From assembly GCA_965233865.1 (NCBI GenBank), contig OZ247587.1, forward strand, positions 832,001 through 896,000: 64,000 bases of DNA, given 5' to 3'. Under the pieces are notes generated by a model. It ran no database searches, was not told the origin of the DNA, and was given only the letters and a program-made list of their open reading frames with translations. Both the position numbers and the translations under genes were made by a program. The DNA comes from Candidatus Neptunichlamydia sp. (GTDB taxonomy: Bacteria; Chlamydiota; Chlamydiia; Chlamydiales; Simkaniaceae). Of this stretch, positions 1-196 are shown one piece after another (position 1 is the stretch's first letter; every line of letters begins with the position of its first letter).

Positions 1-143
1 TGAGGGTCCTTGATGTGCTTCATCATCTCAAGAATAAGGGCATACGACTTCCCAGCACCCATAGCACCACCAACTACGGCAATGTCCGCAGGACAATTAA
101 AAACTTGGGCTTGAAAACCTTTTTGAACGACTAATCTGGACAA
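1..143 (-). CDS. Phage terminase large subunit, N-terminal ATPase part (runs off the left edge of the window)
   Basis: Manual translation from TTG at 143: MSRLVVQKGFQAQVFNCPADIAVVGGAMGAGKSYALILEMMKHIKDP. The Q-motif plus ADIAVVGGAxGxGKS Walker A is typical of Terminase_6-type large subunits. A G9 SD-like tract lies upstream. Not in the ORF track. Confidence 0.75.
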   Translation of the reverse strand, partial: MSRLVVQKGFQAQVFNCPADIAVVGGAMGAGKSYALILEMMKHIKDP

Positions 144-161
144 GATCCCCCCCCCTTGTAC

Positions 162-196
162 CTATGATTATATCATAGAAAATATTTCTATTTCAA
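162..196 (-). promoter_or_regulatory. Sigma70/sigma66-type promoter for the terminase gene, overlapped by a palindrome
   Basis: Minus strand TTGAAA (196-191), 18 bp, TGa-TATAAT (172-167). Inverted repeat CTATGAT-tat-ATCATAG at 162-178 covers the -10. Confidence 0.55.

Follow-up and report, generated by a model that had tools for sequence, protein, structure and literature searches.

The stretch analysed here, the window, comprises 64,000 nucleotides (G000:C1:832001-896000) of a chlamydial genome that is available as a single contig, a closed chromosome of 1,830,388 bp with 41.0% GC. Its placement in the Chlamydiota rests mainly on its kinship with a metagenome-assembled genome assigned to that phylum; of two chlamydial markers, Hc1 (PF07432) has a match in the genome but also in a Bacteroides control, and OmcB (PF03504) matched neither this genome nor any control genome. 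The left edge of the window cuts through a minus-strand reading frame that resembles the packaging enzyme of tailed phages, and the question that this locus raises is whether such a packaging module is at work in an intracellular bacterium or whether the frame is what a departed phage left behind. We consider it very likely that the frame represents the beginning of a defunct gene for a terminase large subunit (TerL), part of a 971-bp relic of a tailed phage that was once resident in this chlamydial lineage, and that its truncation was recent.

The frame and its upstream region

An earlier note, made from the window alone, had described a minus-strand frame opening at a TTG codon at position 143, and translation reproduces its 47 residues up to the window edge exactly (window 3-143). 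These first 47 codons (window 1..143, minus strand), which include a conserved QKGFQ stretch and the Walker A motif GGAMGAGKS, belong to an open reading frame of 334 aa at G000:C1:831139-832143 on the minus strand, which reaches 861 bases past the left edge of the window. The frame had also been described as absent from the list of open reading frames. It is indeed listed only when open ends are allowed, most likely a window-edge effect, since the frame runs off the window.

The assignment to the N-terminus of a tailed-phage TerL is borne out by both domain and phage-family profiles. Pfam Terminase_6N matches residues 25-272 of the 334-aa ORF with an E-value of 1.4e-16 (61.2 bits against a cut-off of 22), Terminase_3 matches as well, and the PHROG family phrog_979, 'terminase large subunit', aligns at 6.5e-69 over ORF residues 7-300 and profile positions 154-447 of 642. 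A search spanning 5.8 billion proteins returned 56 homologues, the best of them 89% identical; the full-length members are 470-480 aa long and carry both Terminase_6N and Terminase_6C. In alignment with the intact 470-aa relatives, the gene begins at the same position and with the same TTG codon, and the columns of Walker A, Walker B (FIDEADE in this copy) and TTNP are invariant, the motifs being named as in T4 gp17. The N-terminal P-loop packaging ATPase domain of a TerL is present in the ORF, and a profile built from the alignment matched no solved-structure sequence (PDB) at an E-value of 0.001.

Upstream of the frame, the near-consensus promoter that had been reported is also found. A sigma-70-type promoter-like site, TTGAAA-18 nt-TATAAT with the TG of an extended -10, lies at window 167..196 on the minus strand (read from 196 to 167), agrees with the consensus at 11 of 12 positions and ends 23 nt upstream of the TTG start codon, inside phage-derived DNA. 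The whole 1.83-Mb genome contains 39 sites of at least 11/12 on both strands together, three of them with the TG, and three block-shuffled genomes contain 66-82 such sites, 2-9 with the TG; at a looser scan threshold, the 2.5-kb region holds 8 promoter-like sites versus 10.5 in shuffles, which is no excess. Sites of at least 11/12 are rare enough genome-wide to make a chance location 23 nt ahead of a start codon unlikely. Among five close relatives compared, the upstream promoter stretch aligns only with that of the closest phage contig (L016).

The palindrome that had been noted over the -10 is likewise present, as CTATGAT/ATCATAG with perfect 7-nt arms and a 3-nt spacer (window 162-178), a pattern for which shuffling gives an expectation of 0.01 per window. 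It is overlapped by a second perfect palindrome of the same dimensions, ATAGAAA/TTTCTAT (window 175-191), which reaches into the promoter spacer. Both are absent from the closest phage contig, and together they could be an operator or a product of chance. Between the -10 and the start codon lies a Shine-Dalgarno-like run of nine G on the coding strand (window 147..155, minus strand; C9 on the forward strand), at the position of which the closest phage contig has AAGGGG; no length variation of the run is listed in contigs of four sequencing runs.

Truncation and isolation of the gene

Followed leftwards, as had been proposed, the gene proves to be interrupted about 900 bp past the window edge by a junction with a fragment of an insertion sequence (IS). 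Alignment with the intact relatives traces TerL identity as far as CDTGLAGGEKSDL, at about residue 313 of about 470, and finds none beyond, so that some 157 aa of the C-terminal nuclease domain are missing and only its first acidic motif, CDTG, survives. Terminase_6C, the RNase H-like nuclease domain, matches neither the ORF nor anything else in G000, in a search that was positive in five control genomes. In comparison with the TerL of tailed phages, as defined by Terminase_6N/6C and phrog_979, the relic thus shares the ATPase motifs and the start, but it lacks the nuclease domain and an accompanying portal and ends in IS-derived codons.

The nature of the junction is instructive. The stretch from residue 302 to residue 334 has six further matches in G000, at 71-97% identity, and positions 830933-831241 correspond, with 99% identity, to the 310 bp that open a 1052-bp repeated element of which the genome has at least seven copies or fragments. 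TerL is joined to an internal position of this element rather than to its end (G000 ~831240), which argues for a deletion or recombination scar and not for a simple insertion, and the ORF closes with about 21 codons of the 3' part of the element, read in a frame other than that of the transposase. We refer to the element as IS4/IS5-like on the basis of sub-threshold domain matches in its fullest copy (DUF4096, E 2e-7, 31.6 bits against a cut-off of 34.3; DDE_Tnp_1_2, E 1.1e-4, 23 bits against 29.2), no copy examined having an uninterrupted transposase frame. Contigs from two sequencing runs of one study (X1 and X2) bridge the junction, which is therefore no assembly artefact, and a fourth run, from another study, contains an identical 335-bp piece of the gene. 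Beyond the junction lies a 105-aa C-terminal fragment of a tyrosine integrase (PF00589, 3.3e-6) that is itself a dispersed repeat.

The phage-derived DNA left at the locus amounts to 971 bp (G000:C1:831235-832205, minus strand, its right end at window 1..205), which align with L016:8136-9108 at 78.6% identity. The homology is limited by window position 205 on one side and by the IS-fragment junction (G000 ~831240) on the other, and it includes 62 bp upstream of the TerL start with the promoter-like site. To the left are found fragments of IS4/5, IS200 and IS6-type transposases and of a serine recombinase, together with an HTH_17 protein, a CHC2 zinc-finger protein and two DUF4135 proteins; to the right, three ORFs without a family match and an IS3-type fragment are followed by housekeeping genes. 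Non-phage ORFs on the opposite strand stand within 1 kb after the truncated gene.

The virion genes expected downstream of a terminase were found neither there nor elsewhere in G000. None of the 49 ORFs within 20 kb on either side matches a virion family in Pfam, and when all ORFs of at least 70 aa from three phage loci (L016, L020 and L017) were used as tblastn queries, no portal or virion ORF had a match in G000; the matches were only to two TerL fragments, to invertase homologues, and to ParB/methyltransferase-like and repeat-protein ORFs. A whole-genome search for the portal family phrog_156 was also negative in G000 and positive in control genomes, and the partnership of TerL with portal and head genes is absent from this genome. 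An intact or inducible tailed prophage would show an unbroken run of genes for capsid, portal, tail and lysis, plus an integrase and att sites, and nothing of the kind lies within 20 kb on either side. Phage satellites of the PICI or P4 kind are compact islands with an integrase, replication genes and capsid-redirecting genes, usually without a TerL of their own; no such gene set adjoins the relic.

Synteny with two genomes of the same genus starts only at window ~4637 (G000 836637), and everything to the left of that point is specific to G000 and rich in fragments of IS elements, integrases and recombinases. The relic therefore lies in a G000-specific, IS-rich zone of rearrangement, and the left neighbours of the syntenic block in those two genomes correspond to G000 1648850-1651892.

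Several other features of this zone deserve mention in their own right. A degraded IS3-type element, with HTH_21 and rve/rve_3 ORFs split over several frames, occupies window 2307-3520, and after it, at window 3423-3518, comes a 96-bp piece of the IS4/IS5-like element found at the TerL break. Just beyond the relic, at L003:13916-18092 (G000 825916-830095), two large divergent ORFs of 541 and 643 aa, one on either strand, show weak similarity to DUF4135 (LanM-N-like).

We read the locus as a dead phage relic rather than a working packaging module because the gene is cut by mobile-element DNA and is not accompanied by virion genes. The ancestral TerL would have been a protein of about 470 aa, combining a packaging ATPase at its N-terminus with an RNase H-like nuclease at its C-terminus, and would have been the first gene of a string comprising TerL, a P22-like portal and virion genes, which was probably transcribed from the surviving sigma-70-like promoter. 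Rearrangements in this IS-rich, strain-specific region would then have removed the nuclease domain (from about codon 314 on), the portal and all other phage genes of a phage that was presumably once resident as a whole, with IS-mediated deletion as the probable cause, so that the ATPase portion left behind is today fused to a site within an IS4/IS5-like fragment. Although Walker A, Walker B and TTNP are kept, any product is predicted to be unable to package DNA, since it has no nuclease and no portal to dock on.

State of decay, distribution and alternative readings

A second TerL fragment is present 393 kb away, as a 366-aa ORF at G000:C1:439009-440109 (L004:10009-11109) that is 60% identical to the window copy. 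Its similarity to TerL ends at DRCVI, at about residue 305, and gives way to unrelated sequence, and a DnaB_C fragment follows the TerL part in another frame. Both copies retain Walker A, Walker B and TTNP. As a measure of decay, we took the 141 positions at which 13 intact relatives all agree and counted the changes there. The window copy has 2 of the 141 changed and the intact genes themselves 0-4, which indicates that the window copy has barely decayed; copy 2 has 16 changed, some of them radically, and has either decayed further or merely diverged further. Every TerL pair shows saturation at synonymous sites (pS at least 0.72, even at 96% protein identity), which rules out a dN/dS estimate.

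The flanks of copy 2 carry three tandem copies of a pair of ORFs (226 and 101 aa) without a family match, as well as IS4/5 fragments. Also at that locus, three tandem ORFs at L004:4553-6868 (G000 ~433553-435868) match zf-Nse, zf-RING_UBOX and U-box, which are eukaryote-like E3-ligase motifs.

A search with an intact relative detected the gene in none of 16 genomes of the same genus, none of 8 others of the same family and 1 of 16 from other families of the order, and a phylum-wide sample gave 15 carriers among 400 other genomes, with 0/34 in the same family. Fourteen of these 15 carry a different TerL lineage, 31-33% identical and intact at 456-480 aa. On the sequence comparisons made here, the two G000 copies are assigned to a lineage otherwise seen only in metagenomic contigs and one metagenome-assembled genome (MAG). 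The comparison across relatives that had been suggested thus gave a patchy pattern (0/24 within the family), with the locus outside the syntenic block, which favours a prophage origin and argues against a domesticated module resembling a gene-transfer agent (GTA). The vertical conservation, synteny and intact head-tail genes that would characterise a GTA are not found.

Among the carriers, a degenerate prophage was observed in a closed chlamydial chromosome of another family (L076, G134:C1:790001-810000). It comprises a ParB-methyltransferase, a 161-aa ORF, an intact TerL of 448 aa (phrog_979, 4e-162), an acetyltransferase, a tyrosine integrase and a truncated portal (phrog_146).

The little-decayed 313 codons, the kept ATPase motifs, the promoter-like site and the two near-identical cuts all fit a recent truncation, and they equally allow retention of the ATPase alone. 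The alternative that they bring into play is an exapted stand-alone ATPase, in which the truncated TerL would be kept and expressed from a strong promoter, for instance as a dominant-negative decoy against the packaging of related phages or in some other host function. Its main argument is that two independent truncations fall within about 10 codons of the ATPase-nuclease boundary (~313 and ~305); by simple arithmetic, with breakpoints uniform over 470 codons, two cuts at most 10 codons apart would occur by chance about 4% of the time. A third short form biased to the ATPase, P0038 (343 aa, on a 5.2-kb metagenomic contig), would fit as well, as would the 313 intact codons with so few invariant sites changed, the motifs retained in both copies and the genome-wide rarity of the promoter-like site. 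Against this stand the failure to find the gene in the 24 same-family genomes or in the 34 of the phylum sample, the C-terminal tail of out-of-frame IS sequence, the 16 changed invariant sites of copy 2, and the position of the gene in an IS-crowded locus at a break in synteny. Taken together, we regard exaptation as improbable, though it is the rival that fares best.

The earlier note had itself taken the frame to open a separately regulated packaging operon, whether of a tailed prophage, a satellite or a GTA-like module. The TerL identity and the promoter-like site speak for this, and the part of the proposal that places TerL at the head of a TerL-portal-virion string holds true of the intact relatives. 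A working module in G000 does not follow from it, because the gene is interrupted and lacks its nuclease domain, no portal or virion gene was detected downstream or in the genome with the queries used, opposite-strand non-phage ORFs begin within 1 kb, and the gene is not conserved in relatives; we hold a functional operon of this kind to be very unlikely. The interruption and the missing virion genes are outcomes that the note had named in advance as refuting its proposal. Least of all can the ORF be a non-phage P-loop helicase or ATPase merely resembling terminases, a reading that has in its favour weak, sub-threshold Pfam matches to TK and nSTAND_NTPase5 over the P-loop only, and that is refuted by the phrog_979 match across residues 7-300 and by identity of up to 89% to portal-adjacent full-length proteins with Terminase_6N and 6C.

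Intact relatives and a possible link to a chlamydial host

A better lead than the relic itself is the phage lineage to which it points. In metagenomic phage contigs, the intact 470-aa relatives always directly precede a P22-like portal, whose gene overlaps the TerL stop codon. At least 12 of 32 metagenomic loci share the gene order TerL, portal, ~630 aa, ~196 aa, ~477 aa, ~236 aa, and many of the rest do not extend far enough. The closest is the viral contig G041 (loci L016 and L056; 37,851 bp, CheckV 50%), with a GC content of 42.1% versus 41.0% in G000. Its TerL has 470 aa, a TTG start and 89.6% identity to the relic across 307 aligned residues; directly after it come a 633-aa portal (phrog_156, 1.5e-46; PF16510 P22_portal, 1.1e-40) and then a string of unannotated ORFs. 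It also encodes Peptidase_S74 tail-fibre proteins, a VRR-NUC protein, ParA, RecT, an exonuclease, a ParB/methyltransferase and an invertase. The TerL-portal phage genes are thus intact in G041, whereas among its genes listed here only those of invertase type have a counterpart in G000. No cultured phage is 34% or more identical to this TerL lineage, and the best match among 72,556 plasmids to an intact relative (P0001) is the terL of a Criblamydia sequanensis plasmid, at 29.7% identity, low enough to place the plasmid gene in a different lineage.

At L056:798-4896, G041 has two further ORFs, of 518 and 875 aa, and the longer one closes with a bacterial EndoU nuclease domain of the polymorphic-toxin type. 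Both are 30-34% identical to ORFs at G000:C1:653607-656189.

We put at about even the chances that the two G000 relics stem from tailed dsDNA phages of environmental Chlamydiota that form an undescribed lineage, with a P22-like portal and ParA, and that G041 represents the first substantial genome of a tailed chlamydiaphage. The reading draws on four lines of evidence, the first being the 89.6% TerL identity. Second, the ends of G041 are inverted copies, of about 111 bp, of the 5' end of an IS630-like element and are ~78% identical to those of G000, where the element of ~890 bp has more than 20 near-identical copies or fragments (for example C1:1431098-1431987, and a fragment at window 31134-31306). 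Within the 400-genome sample, which covers this phylum only, that end matched 6 of 14 genomes of the same genus and 2 of the other ~385 scored. Third, a Chlamydiota MAG of the same order (G296) includes a 4.6-kb contig (L020) with TerL and portal, the TerL being 90% identical to the relic, and a second contig with a portal and another TerL subtype, 67% identical to copy 2, although small contigs in a bin, as both are, count for little as evidence; the IS630-like end of G041 has no match in this MAG, which is 88% complete.

The fourth is an isolated 33-bp exact match between L016:6488-6520 and G000:C1:517622-517654. In G041 the site lies 290 bp upstream of the invertase gene, and in G000 it abuts a 63-bp dispersed repeat. 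It corresponds to no tRNA, tmRNA or Rfam family, has no second copy in G000 with up to seven mismatches and is not conserved in 16 genomes of the same genus. An att or recombination core is one possibility for it, a third, tiny relic another. A CRISPR spacer was also considered for the site and rejected, no repeat array being seen in the sequence. The presence of ParA suggests that members of the lineage may be maintained as plasmid-prophages.

To our knowledge, all cultured phages of chlamydiae are ssDNA microviruses. Microviridae are not known to encode a terminase. Like the chlamydiamicroviruses (Chp1, Chp2 and relatives), the phage behind the relic is associated with Chlamydiota, but it was a tailed dsDNA phage. 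Protochlamydia naegleriophila has been reported to carry a terminase large subunit in its genomic island PnaK_GI2 (PMC5010888), and a 'phage group' of genes with a terminase among them is described for plasmids of P. massiliensis and C. sequanensis, together with an inferred transfer of a prophage (PMC7846284). In the passages concerned, as here, a TerL in a Chlamydiota replicon is read as a prophage remnant, and tailed-phage genes of environmental chlamydiae appear there only as isolated prophage-like genes (PMC5010888; PMC7846284). Unclassified viruses have been predicted to infect Chlamydiales (PMC12644861). In a full-text search of largely open-access literature, no account of a tailed chlamydiaphage came up.

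The relic in the window is, in itself, an ordinary pseudogene that changes little, and its value is that of a host tag. Two relics in a closed chromosome tie a conserved, uncultured TerL-portal-virion module, known from at least 12 metagenomic contigs, to obligate intracellular hosts, and the lead worth following is this candidate tailed-phage lineage of environmental Chlamydiota. If the host link is true, it would provide a concrete candidate genome with which to ask how dsDNA phages gain access to bacteria enclosed in eukaryotic cells, and its promoter, packaging system and ParA partition functions may offer parts for genetic tools in environmental chlamydiae.
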